From the IMG/VR virus record IMGVR_UViG_3300045988_014135: 44,178 bases of DNA; one strand, given 5' to 3'. The notes under the pieces are model-generated. The model was not told where the DNA came from. It did not search any database and worked only from the letters and a program-made list of their open reading frames with translations. Of the stretch, positions 1,957 through 33,966 are shown piece after piece. Origin of the DNA: a virus (Duplodnaviria > Heunggongvirae > Uroviricota > Caudoviricetes). How positions within the stretch are numbered: position 1 is the stretch's first letter; the number at the start of each line of letters is the position of its first letter. The position numbers and the translations under genes are program-made.

Positions 1957-2038
1957 AGTCAGTATGTCCCCTGGACGTTGGAACCCGGGCCACCCGGATT
2001 TACATGTCAAGAATAAATTATTCCAACATGCAAGGCAA

Positions 2039-2284
2039 CTATTCCAGAATATTCCTCACATAATCCTGCAACTCGTAAACCTGCTGCCGTAGTTTTCGCC
2101 CGCAGTCAATACTCATAACATCAGCAGACAGGTCTTCGTCAGCATCAGCTTTTGCGTCACTAAATTTACACGGTTCAACCATCAAAGACGCTTTCACGGG
2201 CGGCAATGTGTTCGGAGTGTATTCCGGTGCGCAGCCCGTTATCCCAATTATTACAGCCGACAGGAATAATTTATTCATGGTCAT
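2039..2284 (-). CDS. o-spanin (Rz1-like outer-membrane lipoprotein)
   Basis: N-terminal signal with lipobox LSAVIIGITGC, Pro-rich mature part with Cys residues; start overlaps the 3' end of the upstream i-spanin-like gene. Confidence 0.6.
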   Translation of the reverse strand: MTMNKLFLSAVIIGITGCAPEYTPNTLPPVKASLMVEPCKFSDAKADADEDLSADVMSIDCGRKLRQQVYELQDYVRNILE

Positions 2285-2627
2285 ATCCTGAGATGTGATT
2301 GGCGTTATCGATGGCGGCCTGTTTCAGCTTAACGCGTGCTTCATCGAAAGTGCAGACATTGCGGCCAGGCGTCCTGACGTACTTAACGACTTCCTGCGTA
2401 ATGGTTACGGTGCGGGCAGCACCCTGCTGTTCAGCGACGGCGGCACGGGTGTCGTTTTGTTGCTGCCGTTGTGTTTTCTTCGCTAGCTCCGCCTGTGCTT
2501 TCTGCTGTTGCTGCGAAACGAGATTCGCCCGGCCTTCGTTCCAGCCGCTGCGATACTGGTAGATTCCGTAGCCGTATGTCAGGAGGATGAAACATGCTCC
2601 AGCTACGACAGTTGCGTTAAGATTCAT
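2271..2627 (-). CDS. i-spanin (Rz-like)
   Basis: N-terminal TM helix (VVAGACFILLTYGYGIY) followed by a Gln/Ala-rich coiled-coil periplasmic domain; overlapped by the lipoprotein gene as in Rz/Rz1 pairs. Confidence 0.6.
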   Translation of the reverse strand: MNLNATVVAGACFILLTYGYGIYQYRSGWNEGRANLVSQQQQKAQAELAKKTQRQQQNDTRAAVAEQQGAARTVTITQEVVKYVRTPGRNVCTFDEARVKLKQAAIDNANHISGYDHE

Positions 2628-2878
2628 GTTTCCCCTTTCTCGATAAGTAAAGCCCCGCCTTAAAGCGGGGCGCTAGTCCTTATCATTTAAACATAGAAAC
2701 GGCGTAATCTCAGTAAACCAGTTACTTTTTACACAAGCAATAGAGTATGGCCCTTCCGAACGCGTCAGCGTAACTACACTCAGGACTTACGTCCCGCTCC
2801 GTTACCTGCCCGCGCCGCGGTCGCTTGCTCATACTTCACAAGCTCAGGTGGAGCTTATCATATTTTCAGTGAAAAGTC

Positions 2879-2894
2879 AACTATTCGAATAGTT
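2879..2894. repeat. perfect 16-bp palindrome AACTATTCGAATAGTT
   Basis: Read directly; lies in the 375-bp intergenic region upstream of promoter 2947..2975; half-sites match the AATAG/CTATT promoter dyad. Confidence 0.8.
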
Positions 2895-2946
2895 TATTCC
2901 AACGTTTACAATTGAGTGGAATAACTGGAATACGTAAATAAATAGT

Positions 2947-2975
2947 TTGCGCGCACCAACATAATAGGGTACTAT
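2947..2975 (+). promoter_or_regulatory. sigma70-type promoter TTGCGC-N17-TACTAT with dyad AATAGGGTACTATT
   Basis: -35 2947-2952, -10 2970-2975, 17-bp spacer; dyad 2963..2976; AGGAG RBS and ATG at 3003 follow. Confidence 0.6.
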
Positions 2976-3002
2976 TCAGTTAACTTAAACAGGAGATGAT
3001 AA

Positions 3003-3524
3003 ATGGTTACTACAGTAATTACTTTCCCTGCGTATGTAGGGGCGAAAATATGCAGGGCTAAAAATGATGTTCGCTACTATTTGAACGCTTTTTACATAGA
3101 CCCTGAAGGATTGATAGTGTCTACGGACGGTCATAGATTGTTCGGCGACAATGTGAAGACCAACGTTGAGAAAGGGACTCTCATAGACATCAAAGGGAGA
3201 GAGCCTTCTAAATTTAACTACGCGGAGGTAAACCACGACAACGGCAGTGTATCTTTCTATGACGATAATCGTGCGCTTATATGTACACTTCCGGTAGATG
3301 TTGTAGAAGGAAACTTTCCTGACTGGAGACGCGTGGCGCACATCACACCGGGTGTTGTCGATAGTATAGGGTTCACTCTGCGCTATTTGGCAGACGCGTA
3401 CAAGATTTCTAAGGCATACAAAAATGAAATTGCTCGTTTCGATTTCCAGGACCAAACCAGAGGATGCAAAATACAATTTTCAAACACGGCCTTTATGGTG
3501 TTAATGCCTGCGCGATTTAAATAA
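3003..3524 (+). CDS. truncated beta sliding clamp (DnaN) homolog, domain II plus partial domain III
   Basis: NDVRYYLNAFYIDPEGLIVSTDGHRLF matches the DnaN segment DVRYYLNG...ATDGHRLA as recalled; FPDWRRV ~ FPDYRRV; C-terminal FMVLMPARFK ~ YVVMPMRL; only 173 aa; own promoter, AGGAG RBS and terminator; opposite strand to flanking genes. Confidence 0.6.
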   Translation: MVTTVITFPAYVGAKICRAKNDVRYYLNAFYIDPEGLIVSTDGHRLFGDNVKTNVEKGTLIDIKGREPSKFNYAEVNHDNGSVSFYDDNRALICTLPVDVVEGNFPDWRRVAHITPGVVDSIGFTLRYLADAYKISKAYKNEIARFDFQDQTRGCKIQFSNTAFMVLMPARFK

Positions 3525-3528
3525 AACT

Positions 3529-3552
3529 AAGGCCCCTTACGGGGCCTTTTAT
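3529..3552. terminator. bidirectional intrinsic terminator (AAGGCCCC-TTAC-GGGGCCTT + T-run)
   Basis: 8-bp GC-rich stem, 4-nt loop, T-run on plus strand; between convergent genes 3003..3524 and 3552..4010. Confidence 0.7.
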
Positions 3553-4010
3553 CATTCTGGCTTAGTGACCTTCGCCGCTTTACTGACAGCCTCTACACCA
3601 TCGGCATCAGTAACTTTAACGAAGTATTCACCTGCTGCGTTAACCGTCAGAGACAAAGCCTCTTCCGGGACGTTTACCACTTCCTTCCCGTCTTTGTACC
3701 AGGTCAGCACATACGGCGCTTTGCCCGCCTTAACTTCGACGGTGATGGTGGCGCTACCGTCGACCAGCTCGGTGTCTTTCGGTTGCACAGAGAAATACAC
3801 ATCGCCAGCATCTGCCAGATACGGAATCTCATAAAGCATACCAGCAGCAGAGAGTGCGATACCGGTCTTGTCCGCATACGGCATCTCGTCTACAGGTGTA
3901 CCTAGTACACTTTCATCTTCAACGTAGGTTACGTTCTCACCAGAACCGGATACACGGGCGTACTGGACTACGCGACGCGACGGCACATCAGTTACTTTAA
4001 AAAAGCCCAT
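3552..4010 (-). CDS. Ig-like domain structural protein (possible head decoration)
   Basis: C-terminal pattern YVLTWYKDGKEV...EYFVKVTD resembles bacterial Ig-like domains; sits in the head module. Confidence 0.4.
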   Translation of the reverse strand: MGFFKVTDVPSRRVVQYARVSGSGENVTYVEDESVLGTPVDEMPYADKTGIALSAAGMLYEIPYLADAGDVYFSVQPKDTELVDGSATITVEVKAGKAPYVLTWYKDGKEVVNVPEEALSLTVNAAGEYFVKVTDADGVEAVSKAAKVTKPE

Positions 4011-15934: not shown

Positions 15935-16167
15935 GAGATTAGTTACGTTGCCGTTGTGATTCTTTAGGGAAGGTTGTGCCTTTATTCTTATTACTTGGTA
16001 ACTAAAGGGCAGGCCTTAAGCCTGCCCAATAATCGTTACATTTTTACGGTTGCGAATCTACGGCACATTAAGAAACAGTAGATATTTCAGCGGGTTACTT
16101 CTTTAAATGAGATTTAGATACACTTATCCTTAAACCCCAAGGCAAGCATCTCAGTTGTCTGGGAGGG

Positions 16168-16199
16168 GTTGACGAATCCCTCGGGGAGGGTTCGTCAAC
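16168..16199. repeat. long inverted repeat (14-bp stem, 3-nt loop, one bulge)
   Basis: GTTGACGAATCCCTC-GGG-GAGGGTTCGTCAAC; no flanking T-run on either strand; in divergent intergenic hub 15881..16353. Confidence 0.8.
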
Positions 16200-16292
16200 T
16201 CCGTAATATATACAAGTCCCAAAACCATTATACAAACATGTGTCAAGAACTTTCAATAACTTTTTTGTAAAGATTAAATATAGCAGGGATTG

Positions 16293-19225: not shown

Positions 19226-19253
19226 GTAAAAAGAAAGGGGCGTTAAGCCCCTT
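19226..19253 (-). terminator. intrinsic terminator after the XRE gene
   Basis: GGGG/CCCC stem with 7-nt loop, U-rich tail on minus strand. Confidence 0.55.
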
Positions 19254-19458
19254 CACCGAACGCCAGCCACTTGGCGTCTACTTCCAGCACTTCCGCCAGT
19301 TTAAACAGCGTCGCCGGGCGGACGTCCTGAGTCACCCCAAGCGCAAGCTGGTTAATAGCGCCCTGGGAAACGCCCGCCAGAACAGCCAGACGGCGCTGGG
19401 AGATGCCGAGTTCTTTACGGCGTTGTTCTACACGGATACCTAGTTCAGATGGTTGCAT
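19243..19458 (-). CDS. XRE-family (Cro/CI-type) HTH transcriptional regulator
   Basis: 71 aa; LGISQRRLAVLAGVSQGAINQLALG helix-turn-helix; AAGGAG RBS; divergent from 19583 gene. Confidence 0.7.
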   Translation of the reverse strand: MQPSELGIRVEQRRKELGISQRRLAVLAGVSQGAINQLALGVTQDVRPATLFKLAEVLEVDAKWLAFGEGA

Positions 19459-22414: not shown

Positions 22415-24613
22415 ATGCCTAATCTATTGTATCTGGATACTGAGACATTCTCTGAAGCGGACTTAAAGAAAGTCGGATCGTATGCGTACGCGGAGCATCC
22501 GACAACCGAGATTATAATTTGTACATATGCCATTGATGATGGGCCCGTAGAAGTATGGGATTGCACTTCCGAACCGGTAATGCCAATAAGCCTCCGCATT
22601 GCGCTGCGCAATGTTATGCGCGGACGTATGAGAATTGTAGGTCATAACTTTTTAATGTTCGACAGGCTTGTTATGAAGCACTGCTGGGGCGTTGATATCA
22701 AGCCAAGAAACACCATTGACACGATGATTAGAGCGTTTCGTCACGCGTTGCCGGGTTCACTTGACGCATTGTGCGAAGTGCTGGGCGTATCTGCGGACAA
22801 CGCGAAAGACAAACGCGGTAAAGCACTGATTCAGCGTTTTTCTAAACCGACGCCGAAGAACTACAAAATCCGCCGTTACACCGCCGAAACTCACCCAGAT
22901 GAGTGGGCGCTGTTCATCAAGTACGCCGTGAGCGACATCACTGCGATGCGTGAAGTCTTCCATAAGCTGCCGCGTTGGGGTAACTCCGAGTTCGAAGACC
23001 GTGTACTGGAACTTGACCAGTTAATCAACGACCGCGGGTTTAAGGTTGATGTGGCGCTGGCGGAAGCTGCGATTGAGGCCGTAGAGAAACACAAGGCGCA
23101 GTTGCAGGAAGAAGCCCAACGCAAATACGGCGGCTCGCTAACTGGCAAAGACTTTCTACCTATTCTGCGGGAACTGGCCCCCGCGCACCGTATTCATAAC
23201 GCGCAGAAGTCGACACTCAATGACCTGCTGGCGGATGATGATTTGCCAGATGACGCCCGCACGATTATCGAAATGCGCCTCGGGGCCGCGTCTACAGCAT
23301 CGACGAAATATAACCCGCTGCTGCTGGGTCGCTCGTCGGACGACCGTCGTCGCGGTTGCTTGCAGTACGGCGGGGCAAAACGCACTTTGCGATGGGCGGG
23401 TAAAGGCTTCCAGCCGCAGAACCTGGCGCGCGGGTACTATCACGATGATGAACTGGATAAAGGCATTTCAGCGTTACTTAAGGGCCGTGCGCATCGCCGT
23501 TTTGATGTGGCCAAGCTAACGGCATCTACGGTTCGTAGCTGCATTATCCCGGAAGCCGGGCATAAGTTTGTCGTCGCCGATTACTCTAACGTTGAGGGTC
23601 GTGGGCTTGCGTGGCTGGCGGGCGAAGAAACCGCGCTCGATACGTTCCGCGCCGGACTGGATATTTACTGCGTAACCGCGGGCAAGATGTTTGGTATGGA
23701 CCCTGATGACATTAAGAAAAACTTCAAGGAAATCAGACAGATAGGCAAAGCATGCGAACTGGGTCTCGGCTACGAGGGCGGCGTCGGAGCGTTCGTTACG
23801 TTCGCCAAAAACTTAGGCCTCGACCTTATTGAGATGGCAAAAACAATGGACGGGACTTTCCCCGACCACATCTGGGCTGCTACCGCACGTGGGTATGAGT
23901 GGGCGCGTATTCAGGAAGCCAAGCGACCACCGCATCCCGGTGAAAAGGATGACCGACCATCATATATTCTGGACAAGAAAGTGTGGCGCACATGTGATGC
24001 AATCAAGCGTATGTGGCGCGAGTCACACCCGGAAACAGTAGCGTTCTGGCGCGACCTTAAAGATGGAATTTTAGCCGCTGTTCGTAATCCTGGTCGTGAA
24101 TTTTGGGCCGGGGCACACTTGCGCCGGAATGGTGAAAGGGCTATCCGCATATGGCGTACCGTAGAATTTGATTCGTCGGGCAGGAAGGTTCCTGGCTGGT
24201 GGTTGTGTATGGAGTTGCCGTCAGGCCGTATCCTCTCGTATCCGGGAATCGGCGTTAGTGTGACAAAGGAAACAGACGAAGACGGACGGGTAAACACGAA
24301 TGTGCGAATCAAGTATCAGGGTGAAAACCAGTTAACCCGCCAATGGACTACCCTGTACACCCACGGCGGCAAAGCCTGCGAAAACATTGTTCAGGCGCTG
24401 TGCCGTGATTTACTCGCATATGCGATGATTAATGTTGAGGGTGGCGGGTATCCCATCGTGCTTTCGGTACACGATGAACTGGTGTGTGAAACTCCGGATA
24501 CCCCAGAGTACACGGTGGCCGAACTGGAAAAATTAATGTGTTCTCTGCCTGAGTGGGCAGAAGGCTTCCCTCTTGTCGCGGAAGGTGCGGAGATGAAGCG
24601 CTATGCTAAGTAA
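22415..24613 (+). CDS. DNA polymerase I (family A) with 3'-5' exonuclease domain
   Basis: Exo motif LYLDTETFSE; polymerase motif A DYSNVEGRGLAWLAGE, motif B RQIGKACELGLGYEGG, motif C VHDELV. Confidence 0.85.
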   Translation: MPNLLYLDTETFSEADLKKVGSYAYAEHPTTEIIICTYAIDDGPVEVWDCTSEPVMPISLRIALRNVMRGRMRIVGHNFLMFDRLVMKHCWGVDIKPRNTIDTMIRAFRHALPGSLDALCEVLGVSADNAKDKRGKALIQRFSKPTPKNYKIRRYTAETHPDEWALFIKYAVSDITAMREVFHKLPRWGNSEFEDRVLELDQLINDRGFKVDVALAEAAIEAVEKHKAQLQEEAQRKYGGSLTGKDFLPILRELAPAHRIHNAQKSTLNDLLADDDLPDDARTIIEMRLGAASTASTKYNPLLLGRSSDDRRRGCLQYGGAKRTLRWAGKGFQPQNLARGYYHDDELDKGISALLKGRAHRRFDVAKLTASTVRSCIIPEAGHKFVVADYSNVEGRGLAWLAGEETALDTFRAGLDIYCVTAGKMFGMDPDDIKKNFKEIRQIGKACELGLGYEGGVGAFVTFAKNLGLDLIEMAKTMDGTFPDHIWAATARGYEWARIQEAKRPPHPGEKDDRPSYILDKKVWRTCDAIKRMWRESHPETVAFWRDLKDGILAAVRNPGREFWAGAHLRRNGERAIRIWRTVEFDSSGRKVPGWWLCMELPSGRILSYPGIGVSVTKETDEDGRVNTNVRIKYQGENQLTRQWTTLYTHGGKACENIVQALCRDLLAYAMINVEGGGYPIVLSVHDELVCETPDTPEYTVAELEKLMCSLPEWAEGFPLVAEGAEMKRYAK

Positions 24614-24734
24614 ACTGATTATCGCGGTACTGGCGGGATTTGCCGCCGGTGTCTACTGTCACGAGGGCCAATACGGCATGATTGTCGCCGTATTATGCAT
24701 GTTTATCGCAATTTATCTGTGGGTGCTGGAATGA
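24603..24734 (+). CDS. small membrane protein
   Basis: 43 aa, two hydrophobic segments; hand translated, overlaps PolA stop. Confidence 0.3.
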   Translation: MLSKLIIAVLAGFAAGVYCHEGQYGMIVAVLCMFIAIYLWVLE

Positions 24735-24820
24735 AAATTTACTGGTTATACGAAGAAGACTGTCGAATCTGTCCGCGTTGCGGGATTGAGCATACGAAAC
24801 GTGAGGGGTGTGTATTATGA
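24731..24820 (+). CDS. micro-ORF with Cys motif (zinc-ribbon-like)
   Basis: 29 aa with CRICPRCG...EGC; overlapping starts/stops. Confidence 0.25.
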   Translation: MKIYWLYEEDCRICPRCGIEHTKREGCVL

Positions 24821-25011
24821 GTAACAAACCATTTAGTAAGAAACTAGCCGCGTTAGTGGATATGCCGGAATGGGAATTTATCATGGTAATGGGAGATGGG
24901 TTCTTTAGTGACGTTTGTGCCGGGTGTACGCACAAAGGCGTTTACTATTCGGAACACGACATCTATCAAGCGTACTTCCTGCGTAACCCAGATGCGGAGC
25001 CGTTGTTATGA
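24817..25011 (+). CDS. small hypothetical protein
   Basis: 64 aa from ATG 24817. Confidence 0.4.
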   Translation: MSNKPFSKKLAALVDMPEWEFIMVMGDGFFSDVCAGCTHKGVYYSEHDIYQAYFLRNPDAEPLL

Positions 25012-25160
25012 CGATGTTTGTATTTTGGTCGATAGTAACCATGCTCGCGCTGTTACTCAGTGCGGGAATAGCTTCGATGTTCTATTATGGCCTGTTCTTT
25101 AAGTTTGTTGGTGTTGCCGTTCTCGGCGGGGCTTTCATCACCTGGATTCTGCGCTCATGA
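25008..25160 (+). CDS. small membrane protein
   Basis: 50 aa with two hydrophobic helices; overlaps neighbours. Confidence 0.35.
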   Translation: MTMFVFWSIVTMLALLLSAGIASMFYYGLFFKFVGVAVLGGAFITWILRS

Positions 25161-25441
25161 CCCCGGAGGGCAAGATTCAGAAATACGCAAAAGAGCGATT
25201 CGAGGCCCTGGGGGGCCTCGTACGCAAATTGTCGTACGAAAATAGAGTGGGCGCTCCTGACCTGCTGGTAATTCTCCCCGGCGGCATCGTATGGTTCGTC
25301 GAGGTTAAGAAAGACGAAAATACGAAGCCTGACCTGCACCAGTTACGAGAGCACGAGCGGATGCGTAAACGTGGTGCAAATATTTTTGTCGTCGGGTCGT
25401 TCAAACAGGTTGACGACCTAATAGCGAACTATTATAGTTAG
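25157..25441 (+). CDS. VRR-NUC domain nuclease
   Basis: 94 aa with PD-(D/E)XK-like core DLLVILPGGIVWFVEVKKD. Confidence 0.6.
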   Translation: MTPEGKIQKYAKERFEALGGLVRKLSYENRVGAPDLLVILPGGIVWFVEVKKDENTKPDLHQLREHERMRKRGANIFVVGSFKQVDDLIANYYS

Positions 25442-25471
25442 TCCTACACCAACAATATAAGGAATTTAGAA

Positions 25472-25666
25472 ATGAAACATGAATACGACCGCAAACCAGC
25501 ACGTGACATCGTACCGGGCGACATGATTTTCAACGTTAAGACCCGTCGTCCTGTTGCCGTTGATACAGTGTTCGTCGAGTCGAACGGTAAACTGGTCATC
25601 GAAGATGTAACCGGTAACGTTACGGCGTTTGGGCGGAAGGAATTGGTACTCTACGTTAAGGGTTGA
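25472..25666 (+). CDS. small hypothetical protein (PGD-motif family)
   Basis: 64 aa; DIVPGDMIF motif shared with 10603..10767. Confidence 0.45.
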   Translation: MKHEYDRKPARDIVPGDMIFNVKTRRPVAVDTVFVESNGKLVIEDVTGNVTAFGRKELVLYVKG

Positions 25667-27093
25667 TTATGTCTAAATTTATCCGTCGAGAGTACCAGAA
25701 GCTCATGACTTCGTTCATGCTGCAACACCCGCGCTGTAATATTTGGGCCTCGATGGGCGCGGGCAAAAGTTCCGCAACGATGTGGGTTCTAAACCGCCTG
25801 TTCCGCAACGGGCAGCTTACGGAAGAGGACCGCGTGTTAATCCTCGCCCCGTTACGTGTTGCATCCGGTACGTGGCCCGCAGAACAAACTAAGTGGGGTT
25901 TCCCTTGTCTGAGTGTCGTCGATGCGACCGGTAGCGAGAGGCGCCGCATCGCGGCGCTGGAGTCGGACGCTAACGTGGTATGCACCAACTACGAAGTTAT
26001 CGAGTGGCTGATTGACTACTACGGCAAAGACGACTGGCCTTTTACGGTTATCGTTGCCGATGAGAGCACGAAACTGAAATCATTCCGCAGTCGTTCAGGC
26101 GGCAGCAAGCGGGCAAAGGCGCTTAGCAAGGTTGCGTTCGGTAAGGTCAAGCGTTTTATAAACCTGACGGGAACGCCATCACCTAACGGCCTCAAAGACT
26201 TGTGGGGCCAGAACTGGTTTATCGACGCTGGCGAGCGCCTCGGCTCATCGTACACGGCATTCACCGACCGCTGGTTCAACTCGGTACAGAAAGGCAAATC
26301 GGCTATGGCGCGCGAATACCACGCTCGCCCTGGTGCGGATAATGAAATTCACCAGAAGATGAAAGACATCAGCCTGACGATTGACGCCGCCGAGTGGTTT
26401 GGTTGCGAAGCGCCGATTATTGTACCGGTTGAAATTGACCTGCCGAAGAAAGCACGTCAGGCGTACATCGATATGGAGGAAAAGTTATTCGCGGAACTGG
26501 AGAGCGGAGAAGTTGAAGCGGCTAACGCGGCTGCGAAGACATCTAAGTGTTTGCAGATTGCGTCCGGTGCCGTGTATGTATCAGGGCCAGATGGCGAAGC
26601 AACGAAAGACTGGGAGAAAGTGCATGACACGAAGCTGGACGCGCTGGAGTCCATTGTTGAAGAGTTGCAGGGTGCGCCGTTACTGGTGGCCTATCAGTTC
26701 AAGCATGAACTGGAGCGCATCCTTAAGAGATTCCCACAAGCCCAGGCGTTTGCCAAAGGGGCCAAGGGTAATAAGCAGATGGAAGCGTGGAACCGCGGTG
26801 AAATCGAGATTTTGTGCGTGCATCCCGCATCAGCCGGCCATGGTTTGAATTTACAGGACGGCGGCCATCATCTGGCGTTCATCTCGCAAGGCTGGAACCT
26901 TGAGCACTATTTGCAGGTCGTGGAGCGTATAGGTCCGGTCCGCCAGAAACAGGCAGGCCACGAACGACCGGTGTTCCTTTATCACATCGTTGCTAAAGAC
27001 ACGCTGGACGAGGTTGTTGCCGCGCGTACCGACGAGAAGAAAACGGTGCAGGAAGAGTTGCTTAATTACATGAAGAGACGAGGTAAGAAATGA
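25663..27093 (+). CDS. SNF2/DEAD-like ATP-dependent helicase
   Basis: Walker A SMGAGKSSATM, DExx box VIVADESTKL, C-terminal helicase-type block. Confidence 0.7.
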   Translation: MIMSKFIRREYQKLMTSFMLQHPRCNIWASMGAGKSSATMWVLNRLFRNGQLTEEDRVLILAPLRVASGTWPAEQTKWGFPCLSVVDATGSERRRIAALESDANVVCTNYEVIEWLIDYYGKDDWPFTVIVADESTKLKSFRSRSGGSKRAKALSKVAFGKVKRFINLTGTPSPNGLKDLWGQNWFIDAGERLGSSYTAFTDRWFNSVQKGKSAMAREYHARPGADNEIHQKMKDISLTIDAAEWFGCEAPIIVPVEIDLPKKARQAYIDMEEKLFAELESGEVEAANAAAKTSKCLQIASGAVYVSGPDGEATKDWEKVHDTKLDALESIVEELQGAPLLVAYQFKHELERILKRFPQAQAFAKGAKGNKQMEAWNRGEIEILCVHPASAGHGLNLQDGGHHLAFISQGWNLEHYLQVVERIGPVRQKQAGHERPVFLYHIVAKDTLDEVVAARTDEKKTVQEELLNYMKRRGKK

Positions 27094-27275
27094 AGCTTAA
27101 TGTTGGAGACGAAATATACAGCGTACATTCATTCAATACTTTCACAATCGAGTACATATCAAAAGACGGCAACAGCTTTGTTTTGGTAAGCTCAGACGGT
27201 AAGTACGAAAATTCACGATGCTACACACTGCCGGATATAAAGCGCAGTTTCAAGAAAAGCGAAGGTAAGAAATGA
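27090..27275 (+). CDS. small hypothetical protein
   Basis: 61-aa ORF overlapping helicase stop. Confidence 0.4.
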   Translation: MKLNVGDEIYSVHSFNTFTIEYISKDGNSFVLVSSDGKYENSRCYTLPDIKRSFKKSEGKK

Positions 27276-27409
27276 ACGTCATAGCCCCGATCCCCGCATT
27301 GCAAAAACGTATCAAGGAACTCGAAGAAGAGGTTCTACGACTACGACAGCAAAGAGACGCCGCTAATGCGCAACTGGCGTTTGTACTGGAGAAGTTATCC
27401 GAAGATTAG
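27272..27409 (+). CDS. small coiled-coil protein
   Basis: 45 aa (LQKRIKELEEEVLRLRQQRD); last gene before terminator. Confidence 0.35.
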   Translation: MNVIAPIPALQKRIKELEEEVLRLRQQRDAANAQLAFVLEKLSED

Positions 27410-27440
27410 AGAAAAGGCCCCGATTGGGGCCTTAGTTTTA
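27409..27440. terminator. bidirectional intrinsic terminator (AAGGCCCC-GATT-GGGGCCTT)
   Basis: Between convergent replication and tail operons; T-rich on both sides. Confidence 0.7.
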
Positions 27441-29432
27441 TCCTAGTTTTGTATACGTCCAGTTAAATGTCGTCGTGCCCTGACTTGTTATCGCTACATC
27501 CCTTCCTGATGCAGAAAACGTTATGAATGCCCCCACTTTTAATGGCGTTAGAGTTAACGCACCATCATACATCGCTAGTTGGGTAGAAGAGTAGTTGGTT
27601 CCGCTATCCGAAGCCCATACACTAATGAGATACATCCCCTGCATATTTGGCAATGTAAACAATGTTGTTTGCGTACTGGCATTTACTAATTGCGTTCCTT
27701 TTGCGGTGTAGAAACCGGGGGTCTGTAGACCAGCGGATGATACTTGTTGGGTGTACCCACCAGATACAAGACCAGATATCGGGGTGCAGAACCAGTTAAC
27801 ATTACCCTGACTAACTACTGATATAACGGGGGTGCCACCTGCAGGCGCGCGCCAGCGTCCGCTGTACACGTCAATTCGGGATGTTGCGTCCTTAGCGTAT
27901 AACGTAACAGGGTATCCAGTTCCGATGTAAGTGATTGCGTTCTCCGACAAGTCATCCTCAGAAGAGTCGATTATAACCTGACTTGTTCCGGATGCCTTTA
28001 TGAAAGAAACGACACCACTTGCCGCGGGGGCTACAGTTTTCATCTGGTTTTGATGAGCTGTTAAGCCAGATATTTTGCCATTAGTGTTCTCAAAATGGAT
28101 AAGAGAACAATCGGAGCCGCCGTCTGTAGAAATGATATTTCCTTCAGCATCAAATCCCATGATGTTAACCGAGTGCGAGTTAACGAAATGCAAACCGGCA
28201 CTCCCGTAAGACCCTCCGGATACGCCTATCGCTGATTGGTCCATAGCGCAGTTGAGCATAGTTACAGACATGACGGCACCAAATTGATAAGGCGAGACGC
28301 ATCCGGATGCGTAGCAAGTCTCCATCAAAATTGTTGTTCCTAGTGTTTTAATAAAGCCATCATGACAATTTCGCGCCCATACGTTTTGTAACTTAGTAAG
28401 GTAAGTTCCGGTGGTGTCGGAGAAACAGCGCCATGCACCATGTACTGTGCAGTTTTTAATCTCAGACATTTCAAGACCAGTAGTACCGGCTTCAGTGGAG
28501 TAGAAATTAAATGCTATCTTCCCACTATTTCCGGTCGTGACGGTTGGCGTATCCCCCGGATTGTAGAATATATACAGTCCGTCGATGAACAGTTGAATCA
28601 TTTTCGTCCCACCGGAAGAGCTGCCCTGAGCGAGCGCGAAAAGGGATATATCTCCGTCAACGGATATAAACGACTGGGCACGGTTGATGCCGTCGGTGTT
28701 CTCGCCGACGATTCTGACGCTATTATTGAAATAGATGGTGGAGTTAACGAAGCCCGTTCCTTTTGGGATTAGCACTGTCTTTTTGGAGTTGCATGCGGCC
28801 TGTATGGCAGCGTAATCAGTCGACTGGGTAAGACTCGTAACAAAGGGGTATACCATCTGGGCTGCTGTAAGAGTAGAGAATTTCTCGCTTAGTGGGTGGA
28901 TGTCACCATCCCATGTAGCGCCGAAGTCATAAATACTTACAGCATCACTTACCTTGCTATGTAGGGTTCTCCCAACGGCTCCGGCCAGTACAGATTTAAC
29001 CCCGACCATGGCGTCGCCTAGTTGCACATCGTCCGTGTTTGCTAAATCATCGCGTAGATATGGGTCGGTCTGCGGCTTCCAGTTAGCGTTACCGACCGGG
29101 TTAAACGATGCAGGGACAACAACCGGAAGCGTACCCGCGTATGAGTACCACGTTTTACTCACCGGGTCATAAACAATTTTGTCACGGTCATTAACAGTTA
29201 GCGTGCCGCCGGTAGAAAAGTCCCACGATACGGGAGAAAAACCAGCGTCACGCAGTACCGCCGGGAGGGTCTTCTGCGTCTGGCCTGTAACAGCATTGGT
29301 CGCGTAATCAATATCTGCACCACCAGCAACCCCGCCTGCTTTACCGGTGATAACCTCGATTTCGAAAATCTGGTGTTTACGTGCGATTTGCATCGACTCC
29401 AGACTTACAACATCACCACATCCGCTTGACAT
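27438..29432 (-). CDS. tail fibre / tailspike (receptor-binding protein candidate)
   Basis: 664 aa, last gene of tail operon; Gly/Ser/Thr/Asn-rich with repeated short beta-strand-like segments. Confidence 0.5.
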   Translation of the reverse strand: MSSGCGDVVSLESMQIARKHQIFEIEVITGKAGGVAGGADIDYATNAVTGQTQKTLPAVLRDAGFSPVSWDFSTGGTLTVNDRDKIVYDPVSKTWYSYAGTLPVVVPASFNPVGNANWKPQTDPYLRDDLANTDDVQLGDAMVGVKSVLAGAVGRTLHSKVSDAVSIYDFGATWDGDIHPLSEKFSTLTAAQMVYPFVTSLTQSTDYAAIQAACNSKKTVLIPKGTGFVNSTIYFNNSVRIVGENTDGINRAQSFISVDGDISLFALAQGSSSGGTKMIQLFIDGLYIFYNPGDTPTVTTGNSGKIAFNFYSTEAGTTGLEMSEIKNCTVHGAWRCFSDTTGTYLTKLQNVWARNCHDGFIKTLGTTILMETCYASGCVSPYQFGAVMSVTMLNCAMDQSAIGVSGGSYGSAGLHFVNSHSVNIMGFDAEGNIISTDGGSDCSLIHFENTNGKISGLTAHQNQMKTVAPAASGVVSFIKASGTSQVIIDSSEDDLSENAITYIGTGYPVTLYAKDATSRIDVYSGRWRAPAGGTPVISVVSQGNVNWFCTPISGLVSGGYTQQVSSAGLQTPGFYTAKGTQLVNASTQTTLFTLPNMQGMYLISVWASDSGTNYSSTQLAMYDGALTLTPLKVGAFITFSASGRDVAITSQGTTTFNWTYTKLG

Positions 29433-29444
29433 ATAGAGTCCTCT

Positions 29445-32075
29445 TTAACTAAAACCGTTGCTGAATCCGTCGGAGAAACCGCGACCGAAAGGCGCGACGC
29501 CGTCGTATTTATAGAAATCTGCTTCATAGTTAATCCCGGTAATCTTAACCGTTCTGTCGTCTCCGGGGTCAACTGTAGAAACAAGAATCATCTGAGCATT
29601 ATGCCTTGCTTCGTTACCGAATGAAAACTCAGTTTTTAGTGCGCTATTCCCTGTGTATATCGCCTCTTGAGGCGCAGAGAGCATAACCACTTCACGGTCG
29701 TGGCTTCCAGGCACAACAGCAACACTTTGAACTCCGCCGTCTCTCTTCTTAAGAATCAGTGAGTGGTCATCCCCCGGAGTAAACGTAACCGGCTGAGAAA
29801 GAGTAAGGGTAAGCCCATTAACGGCAACGACATAACCATCTTGAGGTGCTACTCGCGAGCCTTTAACTACGCTTATTGCCCGTCCTGGAAGCACAAAAAC
29901 CCCTTCTTCTGTCGCCGTGAATGATACCGTCACCTTCTTCAACAGGTTCTTCTGGTACCGACGGTACGCCGCCCAGTACGCCTGACGATAATTACGTATA
30001 CCTTTAGAGTCATACGTTTCTGTGTTAACACCGCCCTCGGCGGGAATGCTGATGGTCTCTTTTACGTTAGTATCTGGGTCGATGTAGGAGAACTTAAGAC
30101 TATCGTATACCTGAGCGTCGTTGAATGTGCGCGTCCACTTTTCCGAAGCTGTTGTCTTACTTCGATGTGTGAATACCATTTCCGGCCCCATACGCGGGCG
30201 CTCGAAATCCAGTAATATGTCTTGCCCTTTACGATATGGAGTGCAGAAAATAGCATCGGCTATTGTGCTGATGATATCCTGCATGGTCATTTTATAGTCG
30301 TCAAAAGTGTAGCAGAATTGACCCGCCTCCACGTTACCGAAATAATTCTCAATCTCGGTCTGAGTCGCTAACAACTTGTCCATATTGGATGTTGTTAGGT
30401 TGAGATTACCTACTACCGGGTCACGGGCGAGACGTATTAATGATTGAATGGCCTGAGTATTCGGTGTCATTACGGTGTCGAATACACCATTACCGAGGTA
30501 TTTGTACACCATCTCTGTGGCGACCATACGTAACTGTGGTTGCTTAATCTCTGCGGCCCGCGGCGTCTGCTTACGTGCCGAGTGTACGGTAGTACGATTG
30601 CCGTAATGTGGCGTAGTGTCACGGACCTGACCGTAAAGGTTGATATAGGAAACCTCGTCTACCACGGTGCCCTCGAAATCAAGGTCCAGGTTGGTAACAC
30701 GACGGGCACGTACCCTAACTTTCGACCTCATGGGCAAGTCGGCGTAAATAGTAACTCCGGTGTAGTCGGCGGACCGACCAGATATAACGGCCTGTTTTGA
30801 ATAGATACTCCCGTATGGGGCACCGGTTTCATCGAGTAGTTGGTATTGGAGTTCAATAGTTACCGACGTACGCAATTTACTGCCGTTGTCTTTATACATA
30901 CCGTTAGCGGCAGCGATGTTGACTACTACGCGTTCAACTTCCAGGCGGTTTAAGGTGGTCCAGTCGGTTAATGTTCTTTCATACGTATCCACGGGGCCTA
31001 CCCACGTGTCACTTCTCTGGGAAAGTGAATAGGTGGTTGAGCCTAAAGCAGCCCAATTAGACGCGCCGCCGGTGTCGACCCGCAGCTCGAAGTTATCGAC
31101 ATAAAGAACACGAAAGTTGCCGTTGGTATTTGTTACGTCCGGAACGTCAAAGTTATTGAACGACGCGGTGTCACCAACAGATAATATTTCCGCGAAGCCA
31201 GAATCCCCCGTGTCGTCATACAGGTATCCAATTTTTGTAGCAGAGTCATATCTCACGCGGCCCGTGTCGCTTGGGTTGACCCGAATATCGTTCTGGGCTT
31301 TAAGAACGGCTCCATCTACTTCATTAGACGCGATAGTTATATAAAGATTCTGATTGATAGGTTCCCCCACCAGAAGCTGCGGGGTATTTGTATTGTTGGG
31401 GGATGTAAACGGCGCGTACACCGCGACAGAGGTCCCCGTAATCTCCTGTACCTTAGTATCGCCGTCGGTAATATCTTCGGCCCTGATGTCCAGATACCCA
31501 CGACCGGCATCGTAGTATCCGTATTCAATAATGCGACCAGATTCATCGAATATTTTATAGGTAGTCATGAGGTCATTAGGGATAGTCTGGACTCTGCCGC
31601 AAATATCATACGACCGTTCATATGGACGGGGTTTATTGTTTCGGTCCGTCAGGCTGTTGTTGGGGGACTCAGCCTGCTGGTTCGCTAAACTCGTTTTAGG
31701 CGTTTTCTGCGACGGAGAAATCAACTTGGTAACAAATTTAAGCACACCCAAAGGGTCCAGGAGTTTACCCAGAAAACCGCCACCGCCACCAGCGCCTTCG
31801 ATAATATGGAAAACATCGTCTTCTTTCAGCGCTTCGAAATCTTCAGTTACTTCCGTGTCCTCGCCGATCTCGCCACGGTAAATACGTACAGGCACCCCGT
31901 CGGGGATGTTAGCGACGACGTATTCCATCGGCGGTACGTTGTGCCGTTCGCGGTCGAAAGTACCGTCTTCGTTACGGGTGTAATGTAATGTCAGCGCCAA
32001 AATTCTATCTCCGCATAAGTTTCGCGCAAGTCTTCCAGACGGTCTAACCGTACCTGGCGACTCGCCAGCTCGCAA
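29445..32075 (-). CDS. tail tip / central fibre protein (lambda J-like candidate)
   Basis: Largest tail ORF (876 aa as drawn); true start probably internal (MEYVVANIPDG, about 31928) because the ORF overlaps the upstream gene by 85 nt. Confidence 0.5.
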   Translation of the reverse strand: MRAGESPGTVRPSGRLARNLCGDRILALTLHYTRNEDGTFDRERHNVPPMEYVVANIPDGVPVRIYRGEIGEDTEVTEDFEALKEDDVFHIIEGAGGGGGFLGKLLDPLGVLKFVTKLISPSQKTPKTSLANQQAESPNNSLTDRNNKPRPYERSYDICGRVQTIPNDLMTTYKIFDESGRIIEYGYYDAGRGYLDIRAEDITDGDTKVQEITGTSVAVYAPFTSPNNTNTPQLLVGEPINQNLYITIASNEVDGAVLKAQNDIRVNPSDTGRVRYDSATKIGYLYDDTGDSGFAEILSVGDTASFNNFDVPDVTNTNGNFRVLYVDNFELRVDTGGASNWAALGSTTYSLSQRSDTWVGPVDTYERTLTDWTTLNRLEVERVVVNIAAANGMYKDNGSKLRTSVTIELQYQLLDETGAPYGSIYSKQAVISGRSADYTGVTIYADLPMRSKVRVRARRVTNLDLDFEGTVVDEVSYINLYGQVRDTTPHYGNRTTVHSARKQTPRAAEIKQPQLRMVATEMVYKYLGNGVFDTVMTPNTQAIQSLIRLARDPVVGNLNLTTSNMDKLLATQTEIENYFGNVEAGQFCYTFDDYKMTMQDIISTIADAIFCTPYRKGQDILLDFERPRMGPEMVFTHRSKTTASEKWTRTFNDAQVYDSLKFSYIDPDTNVKETISIPAEGGVNTETYDSKGIRNYRQAYWAAYRRYQKNLLKKVTVSFTATEEGVFVLPGRAISVVKGSRVAPQDGYVVAVNGLTLTLSQPVTFTPGDDHSLILKKRDGGVQSVAVVPGSHDREVVMLSAPQEAIYTGNSALKTEFSFGNEARHNAQMILVSTVDPGDDRTVKITGINYEADFYKYDGVAPFGRGFSDGFSNGFS

Positions 32076-32356
32076 TGACTAACCATACCGTCATAGTATA
32101 CTCCGGCGTGCCAGATTACACGGTTTCTGTGCCGTGTTGCCATCAGCACGGCATCGAAGTTTTGCGGAGTTTCTACGCGTACAAGGCCTTTAGTATCTTT
32201 ATGGCCTTCTTCGAAGGCGTCGTTAATCTGTGTTGGCGAAGCGACGTTAAACTCAGGCGTAAAGAGGCCTACATCCGCACGAACGTTACGGACATGGTGC
32301 CAGCAATTACGACGGCGAAAGTCGTACGGCAACCCTGTATAAGAATTAATATTCAT
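31991..32356 (-). CDS. tail assembly protein, NlpC/P60-like (lambda K-like candidate)
   Basis: Cys...His...His spacing (RRNCWHHV...HAGVYYDG...SHC) as in papain-like NlpC/P60 folds. Confidence 0.4.
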   Translation of the reverse strand: MNINSYTGLPYDFRRRNCWHHVRNVRADVGLFTPEFNVASPTQINDAFEEGHKDTKGLVRVETPQNFDAVLMATRHRNRVIWHAGVYYDGMVSHCELASRQVRLDRLEDLRETYAEIEFWR

Positions 32357-32868
32357 GTGGACAAAACGCCCCGTAACAATGGGATTACTGAAGGGGTCAT
32401 TAGTTCACCAGTGGCCCTTTGGTTCAACATAGGAACGCCAACGTCGGCGGTAAATAGCCCCTTTTCCTGGTTTATCGACTGTAACTCGTACACAACAGGC
32501 CCATCAGCCGGGTAAGACAAATCAGTACCAACAAAACGGCGGAATATGAATTTAGGTAGCACGGTATTATCAGGCGGTATCCTGTCCATCTCATCATCTA
32601 ACTGGTTACCAATATCAGGTAATGCGAACGACGCCCGCTGGTCCATGTCGTTATTGTTGGCGGCCCCTTTAGCCTCCATAGGGGTAGCCTCAAACGTTAC
32701 GACTTCTCCGGTCTCTAACGTCGCCGTCAGGTCGGAAGTTCCGCGCACAAGCAAATACCGCTTTGAAAGAAGCGGGTGTACTATCTCCAGCGTCGTGTAG
32801 TCAATTTCGCCGTCGGGATTTGAGGCCAGCTTACGGCGGTAGGCTGCTTCTACAGATTCCTGGCTCAT
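32353..32868 (-). CDS. minor tail protein
   Basis: 171 aa between distal tail genes; by position. Confidence 0.4.
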   Translation of the reverse strand: MSQESVEAAYRRKLASNPDGEIDYTTLEIVHPLLSKRYLLVRGTSDLTATLETGEVVTFEATPMEAKGAANNNDMDQRASFALPDIGNQLDDEMDRIPPDNTVLPKFIFRRFVGTDLSYPADGPVVYELQSINQEKGLFTADVGVPMLNQRATGELMTPSVIPLLRGVLST

Positions 32869-32871
32869 AAA

Positions 32872-33963
32872 TTAACCGTCCACATTAAAATCAATACGAG
32901 TGATATATTTACTGCCCCACGCAGAATCCGCTTGGGGGATAGTCGCGTAACCGTCAACAGCCTGAACGTTTACCACAGAGCTGTCGGAGTATGTAATGTC
33001 GATGCTTGTTGCGCCGTTCATTGCTACTTTTGCCGATGCCGCTTGGCGGCCCACAGCAGACGAATCTGTGATTATTGGCGACGTGGCAAATGGTTTTTTT
33101 TCAACCTGAGCGGACGCAACTGAAAAAGAAGATGCTCCATCCGATGCGTAAGACGTGAGTCTGGTAGACGTCATAGACGGTATGCTTGCTACCGCTATGG
33201 AGGATAGTGCAGAACCGTCCCCTGTCGCGATTGTGGTAGTTGAGCATAGAACCCGCCCAGTGCCTAACCCGCCTATCTGGTAGTTAATAGAACCGCCTTC
33301 TGGCGGAACACGCCCAACGGCAACACCATCAATAAATGTTAGAGGCCATTCATTAGTGGCTGATTGCACAAGATTGCCGTTGCGGTTGATGTAATAAACC
33401 TGCGGCCCGTCGTACACAATGCGGCTATCCAGGGCGGACGCCAGAAGGTTAATCGGCGGGTATCCTGCGGGCCCTTCATCGCTCCAGATGCGCGGGAACG
33501 TAGTCTCATAGTTCGCGTATATTTTCAGGAAACTACCCAGACAATCCCCGTAGCAACCATACAAATCTGGCAGATTCTTAGTAAGACATGTGTCTTCCTG
33601 AATTGCTGTGCGCTCTGCTGTAGCCGTAAACGTAATGACCCAGTTCTTGCCGTCGTCTGTGCTATCGCTAATATCAGACGTAATAAGAACCTGGTGGTCT
33701 TCGATACCTAAACCCGTATCGTGCGGCATGATAAATGAAGACGCACCGCCGTCTATGTTGTTCAGGAAGCTATAGAACGCCTGGCGACCGAGCGATGATA
33801 CGACCAGGGTAACGCTAATCGGCACCGGTTCGAAGTATGTATCACGCCCCTGACGAGGCACACCGCCCTGAACTTCTGTACGCCAGATATTACTCCCTCG
33901 CGTTTGGGAGTACCCCTTCGACACTATTGGTCGAAGGGACATAGGGAATCTCAAATCACTCAT
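32872..33963 (-). CDS. minor tail protein (distal tail candidate)
   Basis: 363 aa immediately downstream of tape measure; by position. Confidence 0.4.
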   Translation of the reverse strand: MSDLRFPMSLRPIVSKGYSQTRGSNIWRTEVQGGVPRQGRDTYFEPVPISVTLVVSSLGRQAFYSFLNNIDGGASSFIMPHDTGLGIEDHQVLITSDISDSTDDGKNWVITFTATAERTAIQEDTCLTKNLPDLYGCYGDCLGSFLKIYANYETTFPRIWSDEGPAGYPPINLLASALDSRIVYDGPQVYYINRNGNLVQSATNEWPLTFIDGVAVGRVPPEGGSINYQIGGLGTGRVLCSTTTIATGDGSALSSIAVASIPSMTSTRLTSYASDGASSFSVASAQVEKKPFATSPIITDSSAVGRQAASAKVAMNGATSIDITYSDSSVVNVQAVDGYATIPQADSAWGSKYITRIDFNVDG

Positions 33964-33966
33964 TGG

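Follow-up and report, generated by a model that had tools for sequence, protein, structure and literature searches.

A predicted covariation-supported RNA unit upstream of the spanin, scaffold and capsid genes of Kagunavirus and its relatives

The window analysed here (IMG/VR record IMGVR_UViG_3300045988_014135, the whole stretch of 44,178 nucleotides) is an essentially complete ~44-kb Kagunavirus genome (Guernseyvirinae; K1G/Jersey-like siphoviruses of E. coli and Salmonella), and a megablast of positions 2000-3600 returned matches in 298 phage records of the Kagunavirus/Guernseyvirinae group. The region of interest, 2628-3002, is bounded by the start of the i-spanin gene (2271-2627, minus strand, ATG at 2627), which is followed on the same strand by the genes for the o-spanin, the scaffold and the major capsid protein, and a 173-aa gene on the plus strand (3003-3524, ATG at 3003), the product of which GenBank annotators name a sliding-clamp or beta-clamp-domain protein. 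Within this region, a minus-strand unit composed of a promoter, a folded core, a linker and a terminator-like hairpin very probably specifies a structured RNA. An earlier sequence-only reading had suggested that the region may be an auxiliary operator or contain a small RNA. The small RNA was strongly supported by conservation and covariation, with the correction that it lies on the minus strand and is directed towards the spanins and away from the clamp-like gene.

The unit begins with a predicted sigma-70-type promoter, P_A (2880-2852, minus strand), with a -35 element TTGACT (2880-2875), a 17-nt spacer, and an extended -10 element TGaTAAGCT (2860-2852). By sequence, TTGACT-N17-TGaTAAGCT has the features of extended -10 promoters (a TTGACA-like -35, a spacer of 17 +/- 1, and TGn before TAnnnT), and the RNA would start at G2845 +/- 2. 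The footprint TnGACT-N17-TGnTAnnCT is kept in both Kagunavirus copies of the unit (copies A and B, described below), in Jerseyvirus, and in phage phiEap-2, with forms specific to each lineage (TTGACT...TGnTAAGCT in Kagunavirus, TAGACT...TGtTACGCT in Jerseyvirus, and TGGACT...TGaTAACCT in phiEap-2). The positions that are kept are those critical for sigma-70 (-35 GAC, TG at -15/-14, T-12, A-11, T-7, and the 17-nt spacing). The record of the Kagunavirus fBC-Eco01 (OM272052.1) has a 'Host promoter1' predicted independently on exactly this site. A simple promoter scan missed P_A, the -10 fitting at only three of six positions.

From this promoter the transcript would enter a structured core of ~105-110 nt (2847-2738, minus strand), consisting of a 5' hairpin P0 (2843-2838/2828-2823), helices P1 (2820-2811/2764-2756) and P2 (2808-2801/2774-2766), a variable apical hairpin P3 (2796-2791/2786-2781), an invariant 12-mer UUCGGAAGGGCC (2760-2749), and a single-stranded tail, all given on the minus strand. 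Half of the 12-mer closes P1 and half opens the conserved tail (AAGGGCC...). P0 and the long hairpin are joined by a linker of 1-2 nt; P1 has the form CCG-(bulged C)-GGNGCG ... CGNNUU-CGG and encloses P2 and P3, and the long hairpin carries conserved internal loops (GGAG and AGUGUA). The paralogues and the Jerseyvirus version together supply at least six diverged variants, and in the folding of single sequences eight diverged variants each gave P0 and P1-P2-P3.

A covariance search, one of the checks put forward in the sequence-only reading, bore out the structured RNA. The covariance model was built on a small hand-structured seed of seven rows, two of which had a single base changed so that the seed contained no gaps, and its match to the core was the single copy in the window (139.5 bits, E 5e-33). 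In total 59 model matches were aligned, 32 of them distinct, and among the distinct sequences 97.5% of cells were paired and 19 of 29 pairs were compensatory, with changes on both sides. None of 500 shuffles scored as high, and sliding the 3' partners by 1-3 columns left 28-37% pairing and 2-5 compensatory pairs. One P1 pair appears as C-G, U-A, and A-U across sequences, a change visible even in a structure-blind MAFFT alignment. RNAalifold on the plain MAFFT alignment gave P1 alone, with the inner helices misaligned across lineages, and was replaced by single-sequence folds and alignment to the covariance model. On the plus strand, two invariant G-U pairs of P1 would become C-A, which places the RNA on the minus strand, and the minus strand folds better (-70.9 kcal/mol, z -2.1) than the plus strand (-51.2 kcal/mol, z -1.6). 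An RNA on the plus strand was rejected on the basis of these G-U pairs, its weaker fold, and the orientation of the promoter and terminator. The phiEap-2 sequence matched the model at E 0.0075, but its own minimum free energy (MFE) fold differs from the family fold; it is treated as a diverged homologue, with GUAAC...GUUAC, a GUAA loop, and CGGAAGGGCC in common.

The core is followed by an A+U-rich linker of ~65 nt (2672-2737, minus strand), in which MFE folds place a small hairpin, AGUAA-CUGGU-UUACU (~2726-2712). The linker is ~99% identical among Kagunavirus loci, with variation mostly in the loop or giving G-U wobbles, and is not kept in Jerseyvirus or copy B. It leads to a GC hairpin (2671-2652, minus strand; GCCCCGCU-UUAA-GGCGGGGC) of eight pairs, seven of them G-C, with a 4-nt loop and a tail UUUACUU (2651-2645). 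A GC hairpin had been claimed at about 2653-2674 and was located at 2652-2671, where it is terminator-like on the minus strand; a terminator scan found the G+C-rich stem-loop and U-run of an intrinsic terminator at 2671-2645 (tail TTTACTT). The stem has compensatory changes in relatives (GCCCUGC/GCAGGGC, GCCCGGC/GCCGGGC, and GCCCGAC/GUCGGGC), and the fBC-Eco01 record annotates a terminator just before the spanin gene, with a 38-aa hypothetical protein between promoter and terminator. On this layout, the GC-rich stretch noted by the sequence-only reading is best read as the structured core of the RNA and the GC hairpin as its terminator. Because the U-tract is short, termination at the hairpin is probably partial in efficiency. 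The hairpin tail ends 17 nt before the i-spanin ATG (2627), and those 17 nt hold the ribosome-binding site; in Jerseyvirus and phiEap-2 the hairpin likewise stands directly before the spanin ribosome-binding site. In all three clades (Kagunavirus, Jerseyvirus, and phiEap-2), the stretch from the hairpin to the spanin ATG leaves no room for a promoter, so that read-through transcripts would carry the RNA as a 5' leader, and stopped ones would be a free RNA of ~200 nt.

Positions 2628-2932, the initial 305 bp of the region, make up a conserved block, and 179 GenBank phages have at least 80% of the region at 90-99% identity. Over a common set of 16 loci the RNA unit reached 97.9% identity and its core 98.7%, whereas the scaffold gene stood at 94.0%, the capsid gene at 89.0%, and the decoration gene at 87.1%, which makes the RNA unit the most conserved DNA locally. 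In Jerseyviruses the block is kept at ~71% between the decoration gene and the i-spanin gene, though the clamp-like gene is absent; for this reason the block is assigned to the minus-strand genes and not to the clamp-like gene. Overall, the unit was found throughout Kagunavirus and Jerseyvirus, with a diverged form in phiEap-2. No core match was present in 5,426 complete E. coli genomes. Among the 120 pattern matches listed for bacterial genomes, the model confirmed only one (77 bits), on a 6.2-kb contig of a 'Bacillota bacterium' metagenome-assembled genome (MAG; JAEWLW010000073.1) that is most likely a Kagunavirus fragment mis-binned into the MAG, and in the first 80 of 120 metagenome matches it confirmed Kagunavirus-like contigs only. 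The search pattern was too loose for these two collections.

Many Kagunavirus contigs contained two copies of the unit in a scan of IMG/VR by conserved strings. Copy A is the orthologue of 2847-2738. Copy B occurs in the early region, between a divergent helix-turn-helix (HTH) gene and small early genes near the primase-helicase; there both the promoter (TTGACTTTT...AAATRTGNTAAGCT) and the ~110-nt core recur, ~80% identical to copy A, with a 3' extension and a hairpin distinct from those of copy A. A total of 181 GenBank records gave 235 places, so that ~30% have a second copy. Both paralogues lie upstream of same-strand genes. The hairpins that follow the copies have weak U-tracts, and the B2 and B3 types of copy B have none; these hairpins are therefore unlikely to be clean ends, and the RNAs likely run into the downstream genes. 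The early slot of the window (15990-16240, minus strand) holds a promoter-like TTGAAA-N18-TATAAT, a long hairpin (GUUGACGAA...UUCGUCAAC), and a terminator (GGGCAGGCUUAAGGCCUGCCC-UUUAGUU). This early-slot unit is 100% identical to fBC-Eco01, with its first half in ~21 GenBank records and its distal half widespread, and may be another small RNA in a variable slot for such RNAs.

The RNA matches no described family and is taken, from its sequence conservation and covariation, as an unannotated RNA family of the Guernseyvirinae. Rfam 15 gave zero matches over the whole window at gathering thresholds, and at E up to 10 the stretch 2400-3200 gave only noise (best wcaG, 16 bits against a gathering score of 42). 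ARAGORN identified no tRNA or transfer-messenger RNA in the window, and the literature searched held no description of this RNA. Resemblances to the type I-E CRISPR repeat of E. coli, a boxA/boxC antiterminator, a K-turn, an ARG box, a DnaA box, and the GGAA hairpin of the signal recognition particle RNA were dropped by eye, having the wrong spacing or not being conserved. A search for antisense targets in the phage found the best tail duplexes and exact complementarity at chance level (longest 12 nt, 1.0 expected).

The best explanation as a whole, held tentatively and at slightly less than an even chance, is a self-contained minus-strand unit (2645-2880) producing a structured RNA of ~200 nt, which is either the leader of the spanin-scaffold-capsid operon or a free RNA, with possible control of read-through in cis. 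Host sigma-70 polymerase would start at the extended -10 promoter near 2845, and the first ~105 nt would fold into P0, the short linker, and the long P1-P2-P3 hairpin, before the polymerase passes the ~65-nt A+U-rich linker and reaches the GC hairpin with its weak U-tract. Read-through would make the RNA the 5' leader of the spanin message (probably with scaffold and capsid), and a stop would release it. The folded 5' domain may act in cis on its own polymerase or transcript, setting read-through of its own hairpin and of later terminators in a manner like the put elements of phage HK022, while the 5'-terminal hairpin could stabilise the message by protecting its 5' end. This cis-acting role in transcription, proposed by analogy, is possible and rather less secure than the account of which it is part; it is favoured because the paralogues precede same-strand operons, the U-tracts are weak, no antisense target in the phage rises above chance, and the layout resembles that of putL and putR. 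A specific form of it is unlikely, in which the RNA, in virulent Guernseyvirinae siphoviruses, would be a polymerase-modifying antiterminator independent of factors, its fold having no relation to that of HK022 put, and would have been duplicated with its promoter into early and late operons.

Several points weigh against this account. The likeness to put is one of analogy and not of membership, and constitutive antitermination, given a near-consensus host promoter, would lead to early expression of late genes. By eye, no antiterminator complement to GCGCCCCGC is evident in the core, a provisional point against an attenuator of the riboswitch type, and the cis mechanism is left with no switch in view; the linker differs among lineages. 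The window has no copy B, its slot being occupied by the unrelated promoter-hairpin unit described above, and where copy B is present a separate dyad promoter lies between it and the first ORF (open reading frame), so that a leader role there is not compulsory. A published RNA-seq study of a Kagunavirus makes no mention of non-coding or intergenic transcripts. For the RNA itself, the covariation alignment was fitted to the model's own structure, with two of the seven seeds edited, and a recent spread by recombination could account for part of the excess in identity over the flanks.

The foremost alternative is a stand-alone small RNA of ~200 nt that acts in trans, made early from its strong host-type promoter and ending at the hairpin, which would bind or sequester a host or phage protein or pair with host mRNAs, its position before the spanins being incidental. 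This reading is doubtful, but less so than the other alternatives. Both paralogues have their own promoter and hairpin, the core occurs in two unrelated genomic contexts, and unpaired GGAG, AGUGUA, and AAGGGCCAUAnUCUAUUG are conserved, as would be the case for a binding surface; further, the early slot is variable and holds other promoter-hairpin units, like accessory or anti-host loci. Against these stand complementarity at chance in a search that covered phage transcripts and not host targets, U-tracts that are weak or, in B2 and B3, absent, unlike the typical ends of Hfq-type small RNAs, and the fact that copy A is core to the subfamily and always adjoins the spanin ribosome-binding site. 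The sequence data do not separate action in trans, or as a protein-binding RNA, from action in cis.

On the other side of the region, the clamp-like gene has a predicted promoter of its own (2947-2978, plus strand), with TTGCGC (2947-2952), an N17 spacer, and TACTAT (2970-2975), overlapped by a dyad ATAATAGGGTACTATTCA (2961-2978), and a ribosome-binding site AGGAG read from the sequence (2991-2995, plus strand). This promoter carries one of seven such dyads in the window, and with P_A facing the spanins, 2628-3002 can be read as a back-to-back divergent promoter region. Pfam gave no match at E < 0.01 for the 173-aa protein, and its clamp label derives only from the annotators' BLAST or HHpred results. 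The gene is accessory, missing from the Jerseyviruses and from most Kagunavirus loci at this position, and in fBC-Eco01 it is found elsewhere, after the portal gene. A bidirectional terminator hairpin, AAGGCCCCTTACGGGGCCTT (3529-3548), lies between the convergent clamp-like and decoration genes and separates the upstream late genes from the RNA promoter. The templet record (MT074462.1; 1768-1845) annotates a tRNA-Ser over this terminator and the 3' end of the decoration gene, outside the RNA, which looks like a false positive, as ARAGORN called no tRNA in the homologous sequence of the window. The spanin module (2039-2627) is poorly or not alignable to most close relatives, with no BLAST coverage over 2101-2300 and ~70% identity over 2301-2500, while both flanks are 94-99% identical. 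The spanin region is best read as a mosaic module swap bordered by the conserved RNA unit and by a cluster of sites upstream of the scaffold gene, described below.

The sequence-only reading had centred on a perfect 16-bp palindrome, and this palindrome, AACTATTCGAATAGTT (2879-2894, both strands), is present as claimed, with the everted promoter-dyad half-sites also as claimed (GAATAGT in both halves). It occurs once in the window, even at 3 mismatches. Perfect 16-bp palindromes are expected at 0.77 per sequence of this size and composition, with at least one in 52% of first-order Markov simulations, and a second is present at 28297-28312, inside a large minus-strand ORF (27438-29432); the palindrome alone is therefore not significant, unlike the region as a whole, which is clearly significant through its conservation and covariation. 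The palindrome adjoins the -35 of the RNA promoter, overlapping it by 2 bp, with its centre at about -41.5 from the inferred start, and the promoter of the clamp-like gene is 53 bp off. A centre near -41.5 is typical for class II activators or repressors. The palindrome is nearly universal within Kagunavirus, with single uncompensated changes in four relatives, and is not kept outside the genus, where AAAAAG (Jerseyvirus) or CAAAAG (phiEap-2) replaces GAATAG. The ancestral layout appears to be GAATA-N3-TATTC, six bases, and the -35, with the Kagunavirus GAATAG happening to complete the 16-mer. The palindrome is thus best seen as part of the control region of the RNA promoter and may be a protein-binding site.

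A decamer, TTATTCCAAC, had been said to recur near 2022-2031. The recurrence holds, at 2894-2903 and a second copy, which lies at 2018-2027; alone it is at chance level (three matches at up to 1 mismatch against 2.7 expected). The decamer sits within a 17-mer repeat (GAATAGTTTATTCCAAC vs GAATAAATTATTCCAAC) that contains the dyad GAATA-N3-TATTC, of which there are three copies in 900 bp (2011, 2264, and 2887) and which is over-represented in the window (six at up to 1 mismatch against 1.3 expected, with 0 of 100 shuffles as high). The copy at 2887-2899, GAATAGTTTATTC, belongs to a cluster (2887-2932) of GGAATA/TATTC(C) sites on the upstream side of the RNA promoter, together with TTATTCC (2894-2900), GGAATAA (2918-2924), and GGAATA (2927-2932). 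Its arms, TTATTCCA and TGGAATAA, form an inverted repeat, and on the minus strand the cluster reads TATTCC-AGT-TATTCC-N17-GGAATA-AAC-TATTC. Kagunavirus and Jerseyvirus do not differ in either TATTCCAGTTATTCC or GGAATA-N3-TATTC, and phiEap-2 has both. The palindrome would be the promoter-proximal element of this cluster, spanning -35 to -90, and cluster and palindrome are probably bound by a phage or host regulator of the RNA promoter. A second, related cluster lies upstream of the scaffold gene (1985-2055, minus strand, with sites at ~2008-2055), consisting of GGAATATTCTGGAATAG...GTTGGAATAATTTATTC-TTGACA followed by a hairpin CCGGGTGGCCCGG (1997-1985), and holds the other copy of the decamer; this second cluster is conserved in Jerseyvirus, where the hairpin is kept through compensatory changes. 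This GC hairpin has no U-tract, and no usable -10 is visible; the scaffold-upstream cluster may be an activator-dependent late promoter or a site of RNA processing or stability. No RNA is present at the scaffold-upstream GGAATA cluster, and no GGAATA sites occur at copy B.

The promoter dyad ATAATAGGGTACTATTCA occurs seven times in the window at up to 3 mismatches, against 0.02 expected, always at promoter-like sites (copies AtAATAGgnTACTATTCA at 2961, 14328, 15903, 19487, 19531, 21650, and 37200, overlapping -10 elements), and these seven dyads look like operators of early promoters. Two of the copies flank an HTH_3 (Cro-like) gene (19243-19458). The same motif has been published for fBC-Eco01 as the PHIRE consensus tgAATAGTa-ccTATTat-T and assigned to a phage RNA polymerase (PMC9825357), an assignment that seems unfounded, no RNA polymerase gene being annotated in the relative Schulenburg. 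The palindrome reuses the half-site of this motif, and the copy at 2961-2978 would drive the clamp-like gene, but the half-sites of the palindrome are everted and it is not itself such a promoter.

It is improbable, though compatible with the RNA, that the palindrome and TATTC sites form an auxiliary operator bound by the XRE/Cro-like repressor (19243-19458) that would act at the seven dyads. The gene for the HTH_3 protein has a dyad on either side, the palindrome is flanked by two divergent promoters, and GAATAGT, the -10-side arm of the dyad found in both halves, occurs 12 times in the window against 4.9 expected, with nine of the 12 within dyads or the palindrome. The geometry is nonetheless that of CTATT-N2-AATAG, everted and with N2, against AATAG-N4-CTATT in the promoter dyads, and one symmetric dimer should be unable to read both alike; further, the palindrome overlaps a -35 and not a -10. 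It is specific to one lineage, being absent in Jerseyvirus and phiEap-2 though the remaining cluster is kept, it bears uncompensated changes in four Kagunavirus relatives, and about one perfect 16-mer per genome is expected by chance. The operator suggested by the sequence-only reading was accordingly not supported.

Less probable again is an element that acts at the level of DNA or of priming, either a replication origin, with an R-loop primer beside an A+T-rich stretch and GGAATA iterons, or a recombination linker between mosaic modules. The order of promoter, G-rich structured RNA, and A+T-rich segment, the 6-mers repeated in both orientations in a phage with a T7-like replication module, and the position of copy B at the cumulative GC-skew minimum would suit an origin, and the mosaic flanks, with the clamp-like gene present or absent and the spanins swapped, would suit a linker. 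The compensatory changes, G-U pairs among them, point instead to selection acting on a folded RNA; GGAATA sites are lacking at copy B, no RNA accompanies the second GGAATA cluster, and there is no GC-skew inflection at 2.8 kb, though the skew is uninformative there.

The weakest alternative is a small protein gene or dual-function RNA, in which a 36-44-aa peptide ending AFGRAxxYC would be translated from the core. As the sequence-only reading had it, the region holds no convincing ORF: none exceeds 36 aa in 2628-3002, and the 36-aa ORF (2832-2722, minus strand) is not conserved. GenBank records annotate the core as a 36-38-aa hypothetical protein, and coding sequences for hypothetical proteins cover both RNA copies in GenBank records (Schulenburg, MK931438.1, 37911-38021; locus L001, 2130-2240), the one over copy B of Schulenburg being on the opposite strand; these are probably mis-annotations. 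The peptide is hardly credible, for although an in-frame GCN-TTC-GGA-AGG-GCC...TAY-TGY is present in copy A, the L009 type, B1, B3, Jerseyvirus, and one B2 copy, the invariant 12-mer being read as AFGRA..YC in several lineages, with several of the differences between lineages in the AFGRAxxYC stretch synonymous and a hypothetical protein annotated in related records, phages that are 97% identical differ in the frame and start codon of the N-terminal half, Golestan, L053, and 6/7 B2 copies have lost the frame, indel-free copies of A have 0 synonymous against 8 non-synonymous distinct substitutions (22% synonymous expected at random), no convincing Shine-Dalgarno sequence is present, start codons fall inside hairpin P0, and the 'synonymous' third position of the Ala codon (GCN) is the covarying P1 pair. 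Across relatives, then, neither a kept frame nor an excess of synonymous changes was found.

With its host-type promoter and its place at the head of the lysis, scaffold, and capsid genes, the structured RNA is a strong candidate for a point at which late expression is controlled. The Guernseyvirinae (Jersey- and K1G-like) belong to the phages of E. coli and Salmonella that are isolated most frequently for therapeutic and biocontrol use; hundreds of their genomes are deposited, yet the best-conserved non-coding element in them either lacks annotation or is labelled a hypothetical 36-aa protein. Annotation pipelines should no longer call the ORF in the core, and payload engineering at this 'empty' intergenic site should consider that the site is not empty. 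The strong covariation and the natural paralogous variants make the RNA suited to mutational testing. Action in trans would make it a core small RNA of a virulent phage; action in cis on RNA polymerase would make it only the second class of protein-independent antiterminator RNA in phages.

Three known phage systems can be compared with the unit. The CI RNA of P4 and the c4 RNA of P1/P7, for which Rfam models exist, belong to temperate elements and pair with complementary sites in flanking sequence. Like them, the RNA described here would be a small structured RNA from the 5' leader of the operon that is controlled, with termination as the regulated step, but no such complementarity was found and the Rfam models of P4 and c4 gave no match. 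In the late leader of lambda, PR' is followed by the 6S RNA (194 nt), which has no conserved functional fold, and by tR', and read-through needs the protein Q. The unit shares with PR'-6S-tR' a strong host-type promoter upstream of lysis and morphogenesis genes, a transcript of ~200 nt, a terminator to be read through for late expression, and putative protein-binding sites overlapping the promoter. It differs in that no Q-like gene is annotated in relatives and that here the RNA structure itself appears to be under selection.

The closest likeness is to the put elements of HK022. The putL and putR RNAs have two stem-loops, start at the transcription start, and occur in up to two copies per genome (PMC9378689). 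The core would likewise be the promoter-proximal part of a nascent RNA of host sigma-70 polymerase, with two bulged stem-loops starting at the transcription start as in putL, present once or twice per genome in similar copies, each ahead of terminators and same-strand operons, and with no dedicated protein partner evident. By sequence, the position also agrees, with the first helix ~3 nt after the inferred start, a hairpin-terminator ~175 nt downstream, and same-strand genes next. It differs in size (a core of ~105 nt against ~70 nt for put, which has two stems and a triplex in stem I) and has no detectable similarity in sequence or structure; a one-way search of the HK022 immunity region (24000-34000) with the covariance model of this RNA found nothing (best 4.6 bits, E 8.7). 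Further, the host of the element is a virulent siphovirus and not a lambdoid temperate phage, one copy heads a late operon, and antitermination, which put exerts in cis through the zinc-binding domain of the RNA polymerase beta' subunit, is here proposed by analogy. Should the RNA prove to be a polymerase-modifying antiterminator, RNA-only processive antitermination would be a recurrent strategy of phages and not a peculiarity of HK022.

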